Source of the DNA: an uncultured virus (IMG/VR IMGVR_UViG_3300049489_000353)
Taxonomy: Duplodnaviria > Heunggongvirae > Uroviricota > Caudoviricetes
DNA: 64,000 bases
IMG/VR virus record: IMGVR_UViG_3300049489_000353
Direction: 5' to 3' (one strand)
Under the pieces are notes generated by a model. It was not told where the DNA came from, did no database searches, and saw nothing but the letters and a program-made list of their open reading frames with translations. The translations under genes and the position numbers were made by a program. Numbering within the stretch: the first letter of the stretch is position 1; each line of letters starts with the position of its first letter. Positions 2,247 to 62,557 of this stretch are shown one piece after another.

Positions 2247-4937
2247 CCTCTTGCATCTATAAAAGCAACTGCATACTAGTGCGTATGAAACGATATGTGA
2301 AACGCATGGTGATGTATCTGGTACTGATCATCGTATTTCCTATTGGCATCATGGACGGTGTGCTGACATCCCTGTGGCGCTGGCTCACCAATCTGGAATT
2401 TACCGATGTGCATAACAAGTGGCTGAAATACAAAGAGTTATGGGCACGGGTCTATACGGAGACTTCCAAGTAACTGGAAAGTCGCTTCGTCTTGACTTTT
2501 AAAAATAAGCTGTAGTCTGTGACCATGCAGACCGTATCTGATCTATTTTCCCGAATTACGACCTTGTGTGAAATAACTCTGTCTACCACTGATGGTCGGG
2601 AGATGCGGAACAATCTACTCAGCATCCTGAAGCTGATCAATGGTATCCGTACCCATGCAGACGCAACGCCTGATGATATCAAGAGATGTGACCAGATGCT
2701 GATGGTTCTGGACTGTATAAGTAAAAAGATCGAACAATATAGCCAAGATAAGAAACCCTAAAGAAACGCCATGAACCACAAAGAATGGATGACTGATATG
2801 GTGATGGCTATCGAGCAGCAGCGTAAAGTATATAATGAAGAGAACTTATCTGGTGATGAATTGCGGGCACGGAAGCATGATGCCACGCGGGAAGCATTTG
2901 ATAAGGTACTGCATGTGTTCTATAAAGAGTATGGTCTGAGCCTGGATGAAATGTCCGAGATTCTGGAAAAGAAAAAGATTCGTCATGCCTATGGTGTGAA
3001 GAACGCGGCACAGTGGAGATAACCATGAAAAACATCTTATTCTGCGTTTCAAGCCACGATAACGATAGCCACTTTATCGTGTCTTCCGATACATTGACGG
3101 AACAGTTGCAGTCCATATATGACGAAGCCATCAAGAACGATGGTGTATTTTATATGGAAGGATATCCCGAATGCGTCAACAATAAGGATGGTCTGACCTT
3201 GGTTTCTTTACCAGCGACTATTGATGTCGTAATTCATATTCATTGCTACATGTAAGGAAACATATGAAGAAGTTTTCTCTGAATGATCTATCCCGTGAAG
3301 ATTACGAGTCGGCGCGGCTTGTTTTAGAGGCTGTGAATGTTGCTGGGATTGTATGGAGAAAACATGTGCGTGTTCGTGACATGAGTTGGATTTCTGGTTA
3401 CACGGGTCTGTCTATCAAGGTCATCAACCAATCACTCAAGCATCTTCGGAAAAACTATGAGTGATCCTATTCTCACCATAACCGAAACCTATGTCAACTG
3501 TGAGCCTGGCATGTCGCTTCAAGAGGAACGCGAAGCTATGCAGAGAATCAGCGACCATAAAGCCGATATTATACACTTCTTGACGAAAGCACAAGAATGT
3601 GTTCAAGACAACAATGATGCTTTGGCTGCAACACATATACGGAAAGCGCAGCTATTGATGGACTCATTGATCATCTACAAGCTGCACCGAGGAATATAAG
3701 ATGCCATCACTCACCGTCGCTGAATTGATTGTGAAACTCCAGCAGCTTCCCCAGGATCTTCCTGTGGTCGCTGGAACCGATTTTGCGGTTCCTATCGTGG
3801 ATGTCAGTGTGGTGCGTATGGACCAAGACAATTTCCTCGATGAAGATAAGAACGGACCAGGAATTCTGGTAGTCGCATACAGTGAAGGAGAATGGTAATG
3901 ACACCAGCCCAATCATTCGCATGTATTAACAGTCTCTGTAAGATACTTGAAGATAACAATTTTAAAGATATTCGGGAATGTCGGAATACAACGCCCGCCA
4001 TACTTGGTCATGTGAAGCGGATTCTCCAACATCCCGATGTGACTCAACATGATATCGATAAATGTGTGAAGATTATGAATGGTATAGAGAATATTTTGAA
4101 AAAGGAAAAGAAGCATTTAGATAATCTTCGTAGAAAGAAATCATCATGAGATATCGTATTATCTACTGTAAGGAATATAACGACAAACGAGAAATCAAGG
4201 ATACTTGGTGGGAAGTGCAATGTTTGAAGAGCAAATGGTGGAGTTTCGGAGAGCGTTGGTTCACCGAAATGCAAGCATTCTGGTCAACTGGTGGAGATTT
4301 TTATGAGCCTATGCGATTTGAATCGGAAGAACGTGCCGAAGCGTATATAGGTAGGGCATTGAATAACATTCCGAAAAATACAGTCATTCGAGAACCCATT
4401 GCCGATAATATCAAATCAAAATAGGAACATACCATGTCACACTTCCTTGTTTTTTTCGACACACTGACTGATGAAATCGGAGGCGACGGATCCGACTATT
4501 TCATCAAAAAGAATATCGTTGAAGCGAAAAATCCGAAAGATGCTGTCAAGGTCATGATGAAAAAGATCGTCAAGGCGAATTTCGGTGCGAAACCGGATCC
4601 CGACGATCGAGAGGATCTGATCAGGCAGCTTAAAGACGGTGGAGCAACCGTCGTAGAGCTTGTGAGTCCGAAAGTCACCTGTATCGATTTGGATAAAATA
4701 ACATGTATATAAAAACAAAATCCGAGATTCTGGCAATTTACTTTAGTCAACGGATGTATGCTGAACGGTGTGCAGCGGACTTACAAGAGCCGCCAGCGGC
4801 TGATCACAATGATACATTCTTTCGTAATAGTTGTCGGACCATGATTGAGGAAATGGACAAGGAAAGCCGCGACATGGAAGCGGAATATCCATGGCTGCTT
4901 GAGGTCAAAGCCGTTGTTGATAAAATAGGAGCCTGAC

Positions 4938-35404: not shown

Positions 35405-35455
35405 ATGAGACGCACATATATAGCATCATGCCAAAAAGGAGAAGGTACAGCCTAG
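35405..35455 (+). CDS. Leader peptide 1, MRRTYIASCQKGEGTA
   Basis: AAGGA SD, 16 codons plus TAG, directly followed by alternative hairpins. Confidence 0.75.
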   Translation: MRRTYIASCQKGEGTA

Positions 35456-35484
35456 AGGGGTTGTAAAGCGTCACACGCTTCCAC

Positions 35485-35516
35485 AACCCTCCAGCCCCCT
35501 GGAGGGTTTTTCTTTT
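35485..35516 (+). terminator. Attenuator terminator, array 1
   Basis: AACCCTCCAG-cccc-CTGGAGGGTT then TTTCTTTT; 5' arm can alternatively pair with GGGGTTGT (35457-35464). Confidence 0.85.
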
Positions 35517-42560: not shown

Positions 42561-42925
42561 GGGGATGAACCGGCTTCGACGCGAAATCGGATCTATACCT
42601 TGCAAGCCGTAGAGCATAGGCTACGAAAAAAATATGTAAAAAAATAAACGATGATCACATCGATTACACTGGCGTCGAGAACGCCGGATTCGCTCTCGCC
42701 CTCGCGGCGTAAGCACAGGACTTCCAAGAACCACGATTGGAATGCACCTGTAATATAGTGGTTGCTGTTCAGTAGGCTGGTGAGTAACTGAATTTAAGAT
42801 AACACACTACGGGTTGGATACCGTTCACCAACTACCCTGTCTGATGGGGAACAGATCGGAACAAGCTTGTAGACAGATTAGTGAATATCTTGCGGACCAG
42901 GGTTCGACTCCCTGCATCTCCACCA
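42561..42925 (+). ncRNA. ssrA: tmRNA; tag reading frame DDHIDYTGVENAGFALALAA* at 42650-42712
   Basis: 5' GGGGATG...TTCGAC, 3' T arm and CATCTCCACCA, G3:U70, ATAAAC before resume codon, tag ending LAA. Confidence 0.92.
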
Positions 42926-44189: not shown

Positions 44190-44253
44190 CAAGAGGAATG
44201 AAACGTCCTCGCCCCTTTCAAGCCTCTTAACAATGCTCAAACTGAAAGGTCAT

Positions 44254-44327: not shown

Positions 44328-44614
44328 AATGTCGGTTATCACACTACAAAGGGTTTTCATTACAGAGTTATGTTATTTGTAATGAACGATCACCAGCGTA
44401 TAGTTTAAACAGAACACTTTAGAACAACATGGTTGTGGCTGTGTGCTAGGGTGCGCTCACTTCGAGAGAAGAGTAAATGTCTGTAACGGACAAACTAACG
44501 GTCTTCGCCGCATTCCGAAAAATCCCTTAGATAGAGACAAAATAAACAGCACAGTCTCCATTTTAAGGCGCTACAATTCATGCTAAAGAAGAGTGTGCCC
44601 GACAGCTTTATCAT

Positions 44615-44688
44615 GCCTCCGTAGCTCAATATAGAGCGAGCGATTCTAAACCGCTAGGTTGTGGGTTAAAGTCCCACCGAGGGCACCA
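44615..44688 (+). tRNA. Amber suppressor tRNA (CTA)
   Basis: agcga-ttCTAaa-ccgct, ACCA. Confidence 0.75.
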
Positions 44689-44689
44689 T

Positions 44690-44917
44690 TCGGGAATCCT
44701 ACGAAGAGGGTTGATGAGTTATGCGGAGGGCAGACCTTATCCATACTCCGCTACGATAATTTCACTCAAGCCCAACATATGAGGCTGTTGGGGTCCGCAA
44801 GGATAACCTACTTGTAGTTTCAAACAAAACAGCAAGAGATTGAATTGATCTATTGAGCCTCAATTCAACTTATAACGAGCAATTAGCAAGTTATATCTCT
44901 TGAAGATGTAGGTCCGA
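44690..44917 (+). ncRNA. Family-2 terminal-stem RNA, long form
   Basis: TCGG-GAAT-CCTAC...GTAGG-T-CCGA with several internal hairpins. Confidence 0.5.
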
Positions 44918-44925
44918 TTCATTTT

Positions 44926-45002
44926 GCATCCGTAGCTTTCCGGCGAAAGCGCCCGCCTCTAAAACGGGGTCAAGATGGGATCGACACCCATCGGATGCGC
45001 CA
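44926..45002 (+). tRNA. Amber suppressor tRNA (CTA)
   Basis: cccgc-ctCTAaa-acggg, perfect acceptor, GCCA. Confidence 0.75.
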
Positions 45003-45006
45003 GAAC

Positions 45007-45139
45007 GGTGGAGTGGCGAAAAGATACCTTAACGGGTAACAACCAGCACCACATGCTGCTTGTAGTAAACGCACCGCCACATCGGCGGCGGATCCTAGCT
45101 AGATCCAAACTGTAGGTTCAAGTCCTACCTCCACCACCA
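45007..45139 (+). ncRNA. Leu-like tRNA derivative with D-loop insertion and 5-nt anticodon loop
   Basis: GGTGGAG/CTCCACC-ACCA, ccgcc-acatc-ggcgg, long arm, T arm. Confidence 0.55.
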
Positions 45140-45173
45140 TCACAACGCAATAACCAAAGAAAGGACCAGACCC

Positions 45174-45260
45174 ATGCGTTAGCACGAATACGGGTAGAAC
45201 ATTCGTGGACCTCCTTGAGTTGATTGAGACGAAGTTTTCAATCAATCAACCTAACAAGGA
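45174..45260 (+). promoter_or_regulatory. Amber-interrupted leader ORF (MR*HEYG*NIRGPP*) with SD-sequestering hairpin
   Basis: AAAGGA SD; in-frame TAG at 45180 and 45195; TCCTTG/CAAGGA and GTTGATTGA/TCAATCAAC pairing. Confidence 0.65.
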
Positions 45261-45268
45261 ATAAACCC

Positions 45269-45655
45269 ATGAATAAGACCCAACATAAACTCGCAATGGA
45301 ATTTTTCCGTAGCGAAATCCAAATTCTCGCCAAGAGAATTTTCCACAATAAACAGGCGCTTCGCCACAACCAACGAATCGTCTCAAAGGGACTTGACGAG
45401 CCTACCAAGGAATACGACAAGACCGGTGAGAAATACTGGTGGTGTCCAGAGCAGTCCATTGTCAATGACAAGTGGATGATCACTGGACTTCACATAGTCT
45501 ACGGAGAGTTGCGCGGAAAGCCGCATTTAACAGAGGAAAAGAAAAAGAATTATGTTTCACTCATTGAAACAATTCGTAAGAGAATGGATGAGTACATCGC
45601 GTCGAAAGAAGCTGCTCTCGTATCCAACGGAGCCTCCTGCGCCGGAAGTGTATAG
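45269..45655 (+). CDS. Hypothetical protein upstream of the Pth2-like gene
   Basis: AAGGA SD at 45256, ATG at 45269. Confidence 0.7.
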   Translation: MNKTQHKLAMEFFRSEIQILAKRIFHNKQALRHNQRIVSKGLDEPTKEYDKTGEKYWWCPEQSIVNDKWMITGLHIVYGELRGKPHLTEEKKKNYVSLIETIRKRMDEYIASKEAALVSNGASCAGSV

Positions 45656-45659
45656 AGCC

Positions 45660-45989
45660 ATGCTTAAGATGTTCATCCTTATCAGACGCGACATTCTGCC
45701 ACTCGCACACTGTGCAGTACAGAGTTCGCACGCGGCTGCTGAATTCATGGCTCAACATGGTCAGAAGCCATACGTCATCGATTGGGTGAACAACCACAAG
45801 ACGATGATTCTTCTGTCAGCTACGGAATCGGAAATTGCGAGTATCAAGGCACTGTATGATCGTATGGGCTTGTCCTACACGACCTTCATAGAGCCTGATA
45901 TGTCTAATGCAGAAACGGCGACAGCCTTTGGACCAATCAGCAATGATGTCTCGAAGGCGATCTTTGGTCACTTGTCGCTGTTGAAGTAA
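45660..45989 (+). CDS. Peptidyl-tRNA hydrolase, Pth2-like
   Basis: KMFILIRRDI...AVQSSHAAAEF...W...FIEPD...TATAFGP...LSLL. Confidence 0.8.
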   Translation: MLKMFILIRRDILPLAHCAVQSSHAAAEFMAQHGQKPYVIDWVNNHKTMILLSATESEIASIKALYDRMGLSYTTFIEPDMSNAETATAFGPISNDVSKAIFGHLSLLK

Positions 45990-46021
45990 ACAAGTCCCAC
46001 CCAGCAATGGGTGGGCAGTAT

Positions 46022-46096
46022 GCCCGCATCGTACAGTGGTAGATACAACTGTTTTGTACTCAGTAGACGGTGGTTCGATTCCATCTGTGGGCACCA
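46022..46096 (+). tRNA. tRNA-Thr(TGT)
   Basis: Cloverleaf. Confidence 0.88.
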
Positions 46097-46228
46097 GATG
46101 CAAGATGAAAGAGAAATGGATAGTGTTTTGCAGATATTCAACGCCTTACGGCGCTGAAATGGCTTCGGAGTACCAGTGAGCCGGTGAATCACGGGGACTG
46201 TTCTTAATTCGTTCTACGCTATGGGTTT

Positions 46229-48544: not shown

Positions 48545-49618
48545 ATGGCGTTTTTCGGTGTAACTGTTGAAGAAATTGAAACCGTCAACCCGATCGAGGG
48601 TGCTGACCGTATCCAAGTCGCTACGGTAAAGGGACTTGTATTCAACTTCGTCATTGCCAAGGACAGCTTCAAGCCTGGTGACAAGGTTCTGTACTTCCCT
48701 ATCGATAGTCTGTTGCCACAAGCACTTGCAGAGAAGCTTGGCGTTGCTGGCAAGCTGGCGGGAAAGAACAAGGATCGTGTCAAGACGGTCAAGCTTCGTG
48801 GCGTTATGTCACAAGGTATTGTCGGTAACCTTGATATCATTGGTGACATGAGTTGCGAATCGTTACTTGGTGTCCCTCGTCTGCCATCTACTGAGGAAAT
48901 TACGGCACACTTGGGTGTTACCAAGTACGAGCCGCCAGAAGTCGTTTGCCAAGGTGGGAAGCTGGTTCGTCACGCCGAAGGTGTTTCGACCTACGACATT
49001 GAAGGTGCTGACCGTTACCCCGTCGTGGTCAATGAATTACTGAACCAGCAAGTCTACATCACCGAAAAGGTCGAAGGATCGAACTGGTACGGTGGCGTTG
49101 ATGCTGCTGGCGAATTCGTCGTTGGTCAGCGGAGCGGTGCGATCATTCCCGACGATGGAAATGTAACGCACACATGGTGGACTGTTGCTGCCATGCAAGG
49201 TCTGCTTGACGCTGCCGCTGCTATTCGGCGTGACAAGTACCCAGGCAAGAGCGTCATCATTCGTGGTGAAATCGCTGGTGGAAGCATTCAAGGAAACATC
49301 TACAAGCTGCCGAAAATGCAAATTTTCGCGTTTGATATTCTTGTCGATGGTCAATATGTCGATGCGCTGACATTCCTTGCACTGACCACGGAATACAAGA
49401 TTCAGACGGCTCCTATGTTGTCTCTCAGCAAGACGCTCCATGAGTGGCTTGATGGTAAGACCGTCAAAGATGCTTCTCATGGTAAGAGTCTGCTTGGTGA
49501 TACGATTCGTGAAGGAATCGTTATCAAGCCTATCGTTGAGCAGTACAGCAAGGTGCTTGGTGGGCGTCTGTTCATCAAGCAGCGTGATCCGATTTACTTG
49601 GATAAGACAGGAAACTGA
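48545..49618 (+). CDS. RNA ligase, DRB0094 family
   Basis: N-terminal tRNA-binding-like IEGADRI...VKLRG.MSQG; TEKVEGS, IRGE, AFDI, REGIVIK. Confidence 0.88.
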   Translation: MAFFGVTVEEIETVNPIEGADRIQVATVKGLVFNFVIAKDSFKPGDKVLYFPIDSLLPQALAEKLGVAGKLAGKNKDRVKTVKLRGVMSQGIVGNLDIIGDMSCESLLGVPRLPSTEEITAHLGVTKYEPPEVVCQGGKLVRHAEGVSTYDIEGADRYPVVVNELLNQQVYITEKVEGSNWYGGVDAAGEFVVGQRSGAIIPDDGNVTHTWWTVAAMQGLLDAAAAIRRDKYPGKSVIIRGEIAGGSIQGNIYKLPKMQIFAFDILVDGQYVDALTFLALTTEYKIQTAPMLSLSKTLHEWLDGKTVKDASHGKSLLGDTIREGIVIKPIVEQYSKVLGGRLFIKQRDPIYLDKTGN

Positions 49619-50346
49619 TGAAAGTCATATTCAAAGTTTTAACTGGTTCGCGTTTATATGGTCTGGATTTACCAACATCCGACTATGATATAAAAGCTAT
49701 TGCGCTACCCAGCAAAGAAGATTTGCTGGGTATGGAAGATACTGCGCGTGAACATTGGGATGATGTCAGTATCGATCCGCCAGGTGATGTTGTGGTGTAT
49801 TCGATTACGAAATTCCTTAAATTGTTCATGACAGGTAACCCAACCGTTACGGAATTGATTTTCGTAGATCCACAATTCTATCTGATGCCATCCTCTTCTG
49901 TGTGGATGGACATGGTTGCTTTTTGTAAAAATCGTCTGATATCCGACAAAGCGATTAGCTCATACCGAGGATATTTGTATGATCAATATAATCGCGTAAA
50001 GAGTCGTAAAGCACAAAACAATCGTGAATGGATGATCGAGAAGTATGGTTTCGATATCAAATGCGCAAGTCATGTGTTCCGGCTTGCCAACCAAGGAGCC
50101 GAATTAATTGTGCATGGAACATGTCATCCAACCATGATTGGATTCACCCGTGATGTGTGTATGAGCATCAAAAAAGGTGAAAAAACATACGATGAAACTA
50201 TAAATCTTTTGGACATTGCTTTGCAACATTTCGAAAAGAGTATTGTTTTGTCGAAACTTCCTCCATTTGAAAAAGAATCGATGGAGCGATATGTCAACGA
50301 TTTCGTTTTCAATATTCACTACCGTGTTGTTATGGGGGCACTATGA
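49618..50346 (+). CDS. Pol-beta superfamily nucleotidyltransferase (YcgL/RlaP-like)
   Basis: GSRLYGL...SDYD, GNPTVTE, K.ASH.FRL. Confidence 0.8.
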   Translation: MKVIFKVLTGSRLYGLDLPTSDYDIKAIALPSKEDLLGMEDTAREHWDDVSIDPPGDVVVYSITKFLKLFMTGNPTVTELIFVDPQFYLMPSSSVWMDMVAFCKNRLISDKAISSYRGYLYDQYNRVKSRKAQNNREWMIEKYGFDIKCASHVFRLANQGAELIVHGTCHPTMIGFTRDVCMSIKKGEKTYDETINLLDIALQHFEKSIVLSKLPPFEKESMERYVNDFVFNIHYRVVMGAL

Positions 50347-56098: not shown

Positions 56099-56227
56099 AT
56101 GACGAACACCCTCAACATCCTGAGCAAGCGCGAGCAGAAGTGGCTATCCCAGCCATTATCGAGCCGCCCCGTCATGGCTCGCCATAATCTCTTTAATATC
56201 ACCGATATTACGGAGAGTCCAGGCTAG
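56099..56227 (+). CDS. Leader peptide 2, MTNTLNILSKREQKWLSQPLSSRPVMARHNLFNITDITESPG
   Basis: 42 codons plus TAG; last codons carry the antiterminator strand GTCCAGG; SD weak. Confidence 0.7.
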   Translation: MTNTLNILSKREQKWLSQPLSSRPVMARHNLFNITDITESPG

Positions 56228-56254
56228 AGAACAGGAGAAATCCTAAACCCTCTC

Positions 56255-56291
56255 GAACCCTGGACCCAAAAAGTCCAGGGTTCTTTCTTTT
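56255..56291 (+). terminator. Attenuator terminator, array 2
   Basis: GAACCCTGGAC-ccaaaaa-GTCCAGGGTTC then TTTCTTTT. Confidence 0.88.
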
Positions 56292-56395
56292 ACAACTACA
56301 TATCTGTGGAAAACACAACAATTCCCGTGAAATGCACGGTAAGCCACCGTAGACCGCTACGGCACGGTAAGTCTAAAACACGGGAGTTGTGGTTT

Positions 56396-62166: not shown

Positions 62167-62167
62167 T

Positions 62168-62484
62168 GAGTAAATCAGACAATCGCTAGAGGACTCCAAA
62201 CTCTAGAGGAAAGTCGGGGCACCAAACAAAAATCTACTGGTTAACGACCAGCACACTTTTCAGTAGGTGTGAGGAAAGGGCAGTAAGAAATAAACCGCCG
62301 ATGGCTTCGCAAGAAGATCAGGTAAGGGTTGAAAATTCGGCTTAAGAAACCGGACTTCTCATAGCGATATGAGTCGAGTGTAACCCCTAGATGGTGCAAG
62401 GCAGTAATTGCCGCTTGAGGTCAGCAGTAATGCTGATCCTAGACAAATGATTGTCCTAGACAGAACCCCGCTTACCGATTTACT
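62168..62484 (+). ncRNA. rnpB: RNase P RNA (bacterial type)
   Basis: P1 AGTAAATC/GATTTACT; GAGGAAAGTCGGGGC and ACAGAACCCCGCTTA P4 signatures; GGTAAGGGT. Confidence 0.9.
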
Positions 62485-62557
62485 TTACTGATTTTTTATG
62501 CTATAATGGTTTACCGTATCTTATACTTTGCCGTATAAATACAATTAGGAGATCATT

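Follow-up and report, generated by a model that had tools for sequence, protein, structure and literature searches.

In the ermC/cat and secM-secA attenuators, a ribosome on the leader frees a hidden Shine-Dalgarno (SD) sequence, while in the +1 frameshift autoregulation of prfB an in-frame stop gauges release-factor activity. The RAPP/RGPP/RAGP arrest peptides (ApdA, ApdP, ApcA, SecM, CruR and the S. lividans uORFs) are the set with which we compare our locus. According to the main text of PMC12992588, RGPP is the most robust arrest core in several contexts, and the motif alone is insufficient, upstream residues being needed; the terms 'phage', 'amber' and 'stop codon' have no match in that main text. 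In code-15 phages (Lak, crAss-like), a suppressor tRNA permits genes with in-frame stops, as described in 10.1101/2021.08.26.457843 and PMC8346664. The latter also states that TAG encodes Gln in the Lak phages; a TAA-reading tRNA is present in 51 of 51 Lak genomes, and the paper finds no evidence that TAA is recoded there (PMC8346664). For phage XacN1, the authors were unable to identify targets of the CUA tRNAs (PMC5852040).

Here we analyse a 64,000-nucleotide stretch of DNA from an uncultured virus (the window, meaning this whole stretch), in which a short leader with two in-frame TAG codons lies between two CUA tRNAs and a Pth2-like operon. Our main reading of the locus, to which we assign a probability of about 0.7, is translational attenuation gated by stop-codon readthrough. 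Like the RAPP/RGPP arrest peptides, the leader is a uORF that ends in RGPP and lies 5' of a gene whose SD is held in a hairpin; Ile precedes Arg in SecM and ApdP, as it does in the phage leader. It differs from that set in having 14 codons and no signal peptide, membrane segment or force-release partner, in being carried by a phage, and in its input, which would be amber readthrough. As in prfB, an in-frame stop would serve as a gauge of release factor, but escape would come from a dedicated suppressor tRNA and the output would be a downstream operon, controlled through RNA structure. The freeing of a hidden SD likens the leader to ermC/cat and secM-secA, with readthrough as the inducer, not a drug or a secretion defect. 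In contrast to the code-15 phages, the window phage is not recoded: TAG ends its ordinary genes and in-frame ambers are confined to the regulatory leader, and in Lak the same operon position uses TAA. By analogy, the leader would work like an RGPP arrest-peptide attenuator, of which it is a putative member with a new input. Searches of the open literature returned no description of such a gate.

The leader, the CUA tRNAs and the downstream operon

Its gene content suggests that the window belongs to a jumbo phage. ARAGORN finds 60 tRNA genes and a tmRNA, an Rfam search finds RNase P RNA, and the ORFs are many, short and mainly on the plus strand. The tmRNA, the RNase P RNA, an RNA ligase and an RlaP-like nucleotidyltransferase (42561-42925, 62167-62490 and 48545-50346) are carried by the phage itself and amount to a wide set of functions for RNA repair and translation rescue. 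In the window TAG acts as a normal stop, and the next gene often abuts TAG-ended genes, and the same is true in 35 kb of a distant jumbo phage relative (G001, see below), in which a single gene, the Pth2-like one, contains an in-frame TAG. Genome-wide TAG recoding (code 15) was considered and ruled out for the window and these 35 kb: a CUA suppressor tRNA is present in the window, but in-frame TAG in many ordinary genes is absent from both, and TAG ends ordinary genes.

Two CUA tRNAs were predicted to lie just upstream of the leader, and both ARAGORN and Rfam find them on the plus strand. The first, of amber suppressor type (44615-44688; Rfam 55.4 bits), has an A.C mismatch at 31.39, the last pair of its anticodon stem, and the second (44926-45002; 38.6 bits) has a C.A mismatch at the same position. 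The 'Pyl' label that ARAGORN gives such tRNAs follows the anticodon, and no Pyl gene was found among the 20 window proteins scanned for families. The acceptor stem of the second tRNA resembles what we take to be that of bacterial tRNA-Arg. Two other RNA elements were noted nearby. An abiF RNA lies within the tRNA array at 44214-44250 (Rfam, 50.3 bits against a cut-off of 37) with no sizeable adjoining ORF, and is possibly a decoy antitoxin RNA. At 45007-45139 there is a tRNA-like element (z -4.25) missed by both ARAGORN and Rfam. It has recognisable acceptor and T arms and a long variable arm, but its D region carries an insertion and its anticodon loop is odd; a variant of it is present in run X4.

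The leader uORF occupies positions 45174-45218 of the plus strand and reads M-R-amber-HEYG-amber-NIRGPP-TGA. The AAAGGA SD-like sequence (45160-45165), the first amber at codon 3 (45180-45182), the second (45195-45197) and the terminal TGA at 45216 are found exactly where the original prediction had placed the frame, its SD and both TAGs. The IRGPP codons (45201-45215), a putative arrest core of the RAPP/RGPP class, are at the same time the 5' arms of the helices that mask the downstream SD. Frames of the form SD-ATG...R[GA]PP-stop occur once on the plus strand of the window and not at all on the minus strand, and 60 mononucleotide shuffles give a mean of 0.0. By inspection, the peptide of 14 residues is polar and has no N-terminal localization signal, which is typical of Sec/YidC-monitoring arrest peptides. 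Only 10 residues precede its Arg, and an aromatic residue five positions before the Arg is kept across the distinct leaders (Tyr in 5, Phe in 1).

Downstream, ORF1 (45269-45655, plus strand) encodes a three-helix protein of 128 aa, and its terminal TAG (45653-45655) lies 4 nt before the ATG of the Pth2-like gene at 45660, so that the coordinates agree with the predicted spacing. Readthrough of this TAG (45653-45667) would add 4 codons and end at a TAA just within the Pth2-like gene. In one relative (L017, ~3415-3429) a Gln codon stands at the same distance and the frame stops at the corresponding TAA, and in G001 the TAG lies within the Pth2-like gene. ORF1 has no family match and no usable Atlas match; a structural search gave a best Z of 7.1 and none of at least 8, which is uninformative for a helical protein.

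The second gene of the operon (45660-45989, plus strand, 109 aa) encodes a putative hydrolase. Its predicted Pth2 fold held up, with a PF01981 match of 40.3 bits against a cut-off of 23, but the assignment as a hydrolase did not fare as well: the protein scores below the equivalog cut-offs (PRK04322, 31.3 against 126 bits; TIGR00283, 19.6 against 82 bits), and a weak alignment to 2zv3 by HMM places His at the catalytic Lys site and the Asp one residue off, reading these sites from the Lys/Asp/Thr positions that we take to be catalytic in Pth2. It may therefore lack the catalytic Lys. Compared with archaeal and eukaryotic Pth2 (PF01981; PDB 2zv3), the phage protein is alike in its full-length match above the Pfam cut-off, and differs in scores far below the NCBIfam equivalog cut-offs, in the His for Lys and in an FxEPD motif. 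Searches of the literature on PTRHD1 yielded nothing useful. Between the stop of this gene and a tRNA-Thr there is a strong GC hairpin (45996-46015), and similar hairpins lie 3' of the gene in L002 and G001.

A contig from run X1, a possible source of this DNA, is identical to the window over 44500-46200. RNA run X3 gave three short contigs identical to parts of the region, none spanning the leader, and neither strand nor level can be read from them.

The original prediction had also drawn attention to leaders of the tRNA arrays. Both do end in TAG, at 35405-35455 (16 aa) and 56099-56227 (42 aa). These short ORFs are followed by intrinsic-terminator hairpins 5' of both tRNA arrays (35405-35510 and 56099-56292), and look like transcription attenuators. 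As part of the switch they are unsupported, being placed before terminator hairpins like ordinary attenuators. A mechanical search of G003 and G001 gave candidate counterparts, which terminate with TGA or TAA.

Conservation and folding of the leader

A search with an ORF1 alignment returned six metagenome loci, one of which starts within ORF1; the remaining five all have the leader and, taken with L002/L019, collapse to four distinct sequences: MR-amber-NAEYG-amber-LIRGPP, MR-amber-NKEYG-amber-LIRGPP, MRR-amber-KEYG-amber-LIRGPP and MR-amber-NKYG-amber-LIRGPP. Together with the window they make up the five close leaders, among which ORF1 is 60-91% identical at the DNA level. A wider ORF1 alignment was too divergent for use as a scanning profile. 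A CUA tRNA lies 33-662 nt 5' of the leader in all five, that of L017 being found only at a relaxed ARAGORN threshold, and in L013, L014, L016 and L017 it resembles the first tRNA of the window and has the same 31.39 mismatch.

Searching for an amber-x-IRGPP-stop pattern led to a distant sixth leader, in the jumbo phage records G001 and G002, which are identical over 3 kb and are counted once. Several features outside the search pattern accompany it. A CUA tRNA lies directly 5' of the leader, which has an SD and an M-T-amber start; a hairpin masks the next SD, and there are also a Pth2-like gene with an in-frame TAG and a gene remotely like ORF1. The first leader pattern scan had given no match; later scans gave 10, 6 and 11, of which 7, 3 and 8 have no context and look like chance matches, the tRNA-leader-ORF context being confined to the G001, G002 and G003 records. 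A narrow leader pattern had one match in a species-genome collection, again without context, and no cellular copy was found there.

Across the six distinct leaders, the gate codons are TAG at 12 of 12 positions. The final stop is TAA or TGA in all six, never TAG, the indels preserve the frame, and an AGGA lies 5' of every ATG. The first amber is codon 3, or codon 4 in L016, and the second lies two codons ahead of IRGPP in each. IRGPP itself is present in all six, so that the C-terminal R-[AG]-P-P core is conserved at the peptide level throughout. Conservation of the frame, the ambers and RGPP had been proposed as a check of the prediction, and its loss as grounds for abandoning it; all are kept in the five leaders beyond that of the window.

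The hairpin proposed to hide the SD of ORF1 is also predicted by folding. In the window, the inner hairpin (45212-45260, plus strand; arms beginning at 45212 and 45242) pairs the Pro-Pro codons and the following bases with the AAGGA SD of ORF1 (45256-45260). In the preferred fold, the Ile-Arg-Gly codons pair with the start codon region of ORF1, forming an outer helix (45201-45208 with 45267-45274, plus strand) that is kept in the five close leaders. The segment 45210-45275 folds at -16.8 kcal/mol (z -3.7), which none of 200 shuffles equalled, and a helix that overlaps the leader and buries the SD is predicted in all six leaders, with little covariation: both sides have changed at only 1 of 23 pairs. 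The CACGAAT/ATTCGTG hairpin that had been noted after the first TAG does exist in the window (45183/45201), but the preferred fold uses 45201-45208 for the outer helix instead, and we discarded it as a conserved element, the CACGAAT arm being absent in the relatives.

To represent a translating ribosome, we imposed a footprint of 25 nt, an assumed size, on each leader fold. Without a ribosome, the ORF1 SD had a probability of 0.01-0.27 of being unpaired; placing a ribosome at either amber gave 0.01-0.36, and placing it at RGPP or at the final stop gave 0.35-0.85. In the window, the cost of opening the SD already falls from 10.5 kcal/mol to 4.0 with a ribosome at the second amber, against 2.8 with one at RGPP. 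This modelling supports a gate that would open only past the second amber.

We propose the following mechanism. By default, the predicted and conserved long hairpin would bury the SD and start codon of ORF1. Most ribosomes that start the leader would terminate at one of the two UAG codons, before they reach the SD-masking helix, leaving ORF1 and the Pth2-like gene off. When the phage CUA tRNA beats release factor 1 at both ambers, a ribosome would reach IRGPP and probably pause there, as on the RAPP/RGPP arrest peptides; the paused ribosome would hold the hairpin open and allow translation of ORF1 and the Pth2-like gene. With two ambers in series the threshold would be sharper, and the output would be proteins that handle peptidyl-tRNA or stalled ribosomes. 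The readthrough gate is the part that we hold to be highly probable, and a contribution from a pause at RGPP is somewhat favoured. The original prediction, that the operon is switched on only when both ambers are read through, agrees with the conservation and with the footprint folding, while the stall at RGPP is something we infer, and a ribosome at the final stop does equally well in the model.

It follows from this last result that plain translational coupling could suffice. The same gate could then operate without arrest: ribosomes would cross the hairpin arm and end slowly at Pro-Pro-stop, with IRGPP serving mainly as anti-SD and anti-start RNA. The Ile (ATT) and first Pro (CCT) codons are both invariant and base-paired, so that RNA structure would partly explain the conservation of IRGPP, and RGPP is not universal, since other leaders of the wider group end in VVPP-stop (LR745206), RGP-stop (Lak-B) or contain RGSP (Lak-A). 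Against an RNA role alone, the changes in the R, G and second P codons are all synonymous, and two of them, the second-Pro codons CCA and CCC, lose a hairpin pair and keep the Pro. Moreover, the distant G001 keeps IRGPP even though its Ile-Arg codons are not paired with the start codon in the predicted fold, and in many bacterial phyla no 4-mer is avoided more than RGPP, according to the main text of PMC12992588. We regard the gate without arrest as unlikely, and retain attenuation by a readthrough gate with a contributing pause.

Gated Pth2-like genes in other large phages

We examined 21 phage records with a Pth2-like gene, which were hand-picked for diversity from tblastn lists and do not give a frequency. 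In 16 of the 21, a TAG occurs at codon 2-4 of the Pth2-like or HD-Pth2 gene, after a plausible start: LR756500, XacN1, Catera, ScoobyDoobyDoo, Phabba, Xoo-sp13, LR756501, LR745206, LR756504, ME3, CBB, RsoM2USA, Arash, pT24, LR756511 and BF. Moby and Aeromonas phage 65 are ungated, and the status of RaK2 is ambiguous. A CUA tRNA is present in 12 of the 16 gated phages (11 by ARAGORN, with LR745206 at a relaxed threshold, and XacN1 from PMC5852040) and was not found in the examined parts of the other four. An in-frame start follows soon after the amber in 5 of the 16 genes, so that re-initiation is possible there; several gated genes have been annotated far too short or missed, because no later start is available. 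LR745206 also has a separate leader, MM-stop...VVPP-stop, on an SD-like hairpin. Pattern-based censuses of suppressor tRNAs and of SD-ATG-TAG sites gave about as many matches in controls as in real sequence, and the former missed known tRNAs.

Other genes recur around the gated ones. In CBB (L049, 1515-2081) and BF (L056, 1620-2186), the HD-domain gene that follows the gated Pth2-like one also contains a conserved in-frame TAG, and in XacN1, Xoo-sp13 and pT24 the two domains are joined in a single fusion. YqeY-like genes lie close 5' of the gated genes in three phages (L036, 2001-2423; L037, 330-773; L042, 154-600), and are annotated as glutamyl-tRNA amidotransferase in two records.

The Lak phages show a different stop at the same place. 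Lak-A1 and Lak-B5, reached by Pth2 homology alone, have no amber gate; their order is a UUA tRNA, a leader with an in-frame TAA, a gene that resembles ORF1 by eye only, and the Pth2-like gene. The tRNA and leader span 739-1020 in L046 (Lak-A1) and 847-995 in L047 (Lak-B5), and the leaders read MKLQHW-TAA-VTLSRGSP... (Lak-A) or MELQHW-TAA-VTCDRGP-stop (Lak-B). Seven further Lak loci, found with a TAA-containing pattern, all have a UUA tRNA upstream. In these sequences, the gate codon and the suppressor anticodon change together, in one lineage. We read the attenuator of the window as one form of a more widespread phage module, in which expression of a Pth2-like gene depends on a suppressor tRNA dedicated to it.

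What the gate may sense

Two of the gated phages have release-factor genes that contain stops of their own. In G001, an RF1-type gene with PPT and GGQ motifs (L035, 1405-2119, minus strand) is shortened and split at CTT-TAG-C, at codons 43-44. In LR756511.1, an RF1-type gene (L139, ~253-335) needs two tandem +1 shifts, at CTT-TAA-C and CTT-TGA-C, and its coding body has no in-frame ATG, GTG or TTG. These CTT-stop-C sites resemble the prfB frameshift site, and they occur separately from the leader. No independent relative of the G001 frameshift was found in IMG/VR, and no release-factor gene was found in the G003, G004, XacN1 and LR756500 records searched.

The suppressor tRNAs and the gate context can be set beside these sites. 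A 31.39 mismatch is present in 10 of the 16 suppressor tRNAs that could be parsed (1 of 17 could not), which suggests weak suppressors. A purine follows the gate amber in 25 of 27 cases, against 9 of 15 terminal TAGs (p 0.016, with rows that are not independent). Taken together, the release-factor frameshift sites, the 31.39 mismatches and the purine context favour a gauge of termination in which a detuned tRNA is set against release factor. What is sensed would most likely be how much charged suppressor tRNA there is relative to active release factor, that is, failing termination; that termination failure acts as a physiological signal has, in our judgement, a little less than an even chance.

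The same gate could serve another purpose. In a negative feedback, the gated Pth2-like protein, its HD-domain partner and ORF1 would act on the suppressor tRNA or restore termination, and the gate would keep readthrough low and shield the TAG-ended genes of the phage. This would fit the adjoining of the tRNA and the Pth2-like gene across unrelated phages, the use of TAG as a stop in the phage, and the missing Lys that we take to be catalytic, which would leave room for another substrate. Yet it gives no reason for keeping a suppressor tRNA at all, and the stop-sensing frameshift sites in the release-factor genes point to release-factor shortage as the variable, so that we find it rather doubtful. 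A timer or self-check that senses no stress, with the operon made once the phage suppressor tRNA has accumulated, is improbable to us: the tRNA is co-located and probably co-transcribed, and such timing was proposed for the late genes of recoded phages by Borges et al. (10.1101/2021.08.26.457843), but Lak has an efficient TAG tRNA and yet gates the operon with TAA and a separate UUA tRNA, and the 31.39 mismatches suggest weak suppressors. Very improbable, finally, is regulation without any readthrough, through drop-off from an M-x-TAG minigene or ribosomes waiting at the ambers with the frame beyond incidental, because indels leave the frame intact, only readthrough would make sense of the second amber and of IRGPP, and several gated Pth2-like genes have no later start. 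In its favour, the structure is partly loosened once a ribosome stands at the second amber, in some gated genes the amber is directly followed by a start codon, and two-codon minigenes depend on Pth.

Returning to a readthrough gate that gauges termination, we could speculate that many large phages run a termination-surveillance circuit, in which a weak suppressor tRNA competes with the host release factors and a loss of termination is turned into expression of a rescue module. The stops that do so would be those of the leaders, those near the start of Pth2-like and HD genes and those of the frameshift sites in phage release-factor genes; a host defence not yet recognised, which disables release factors, may be the trigger. 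We consider this broader circuit possible but tentative. If true, it would explain why jumbo phages with the standard code have 'orphan' amber tRNAs and why the ochre tRNA is universal in Lak.

The readthrough-gated leader would give a job to phage suppressor tRNAs that have no known target, and the leader and its relatives provide concrete, testable targets for the CUA tRNAs of XacN1 and for the TAA-reading tRNA of Lak. It would also be a sensor of stop-codon readthrough that occurs in nature and is based on an arrest peptide, and could be used as a reporter. Moreover, it implies that the annotation of many phage Pth2-like genes is too short or absent, and it suggests how phages might come to retain suppressor tRNAs at a stage that precedes full recoding.
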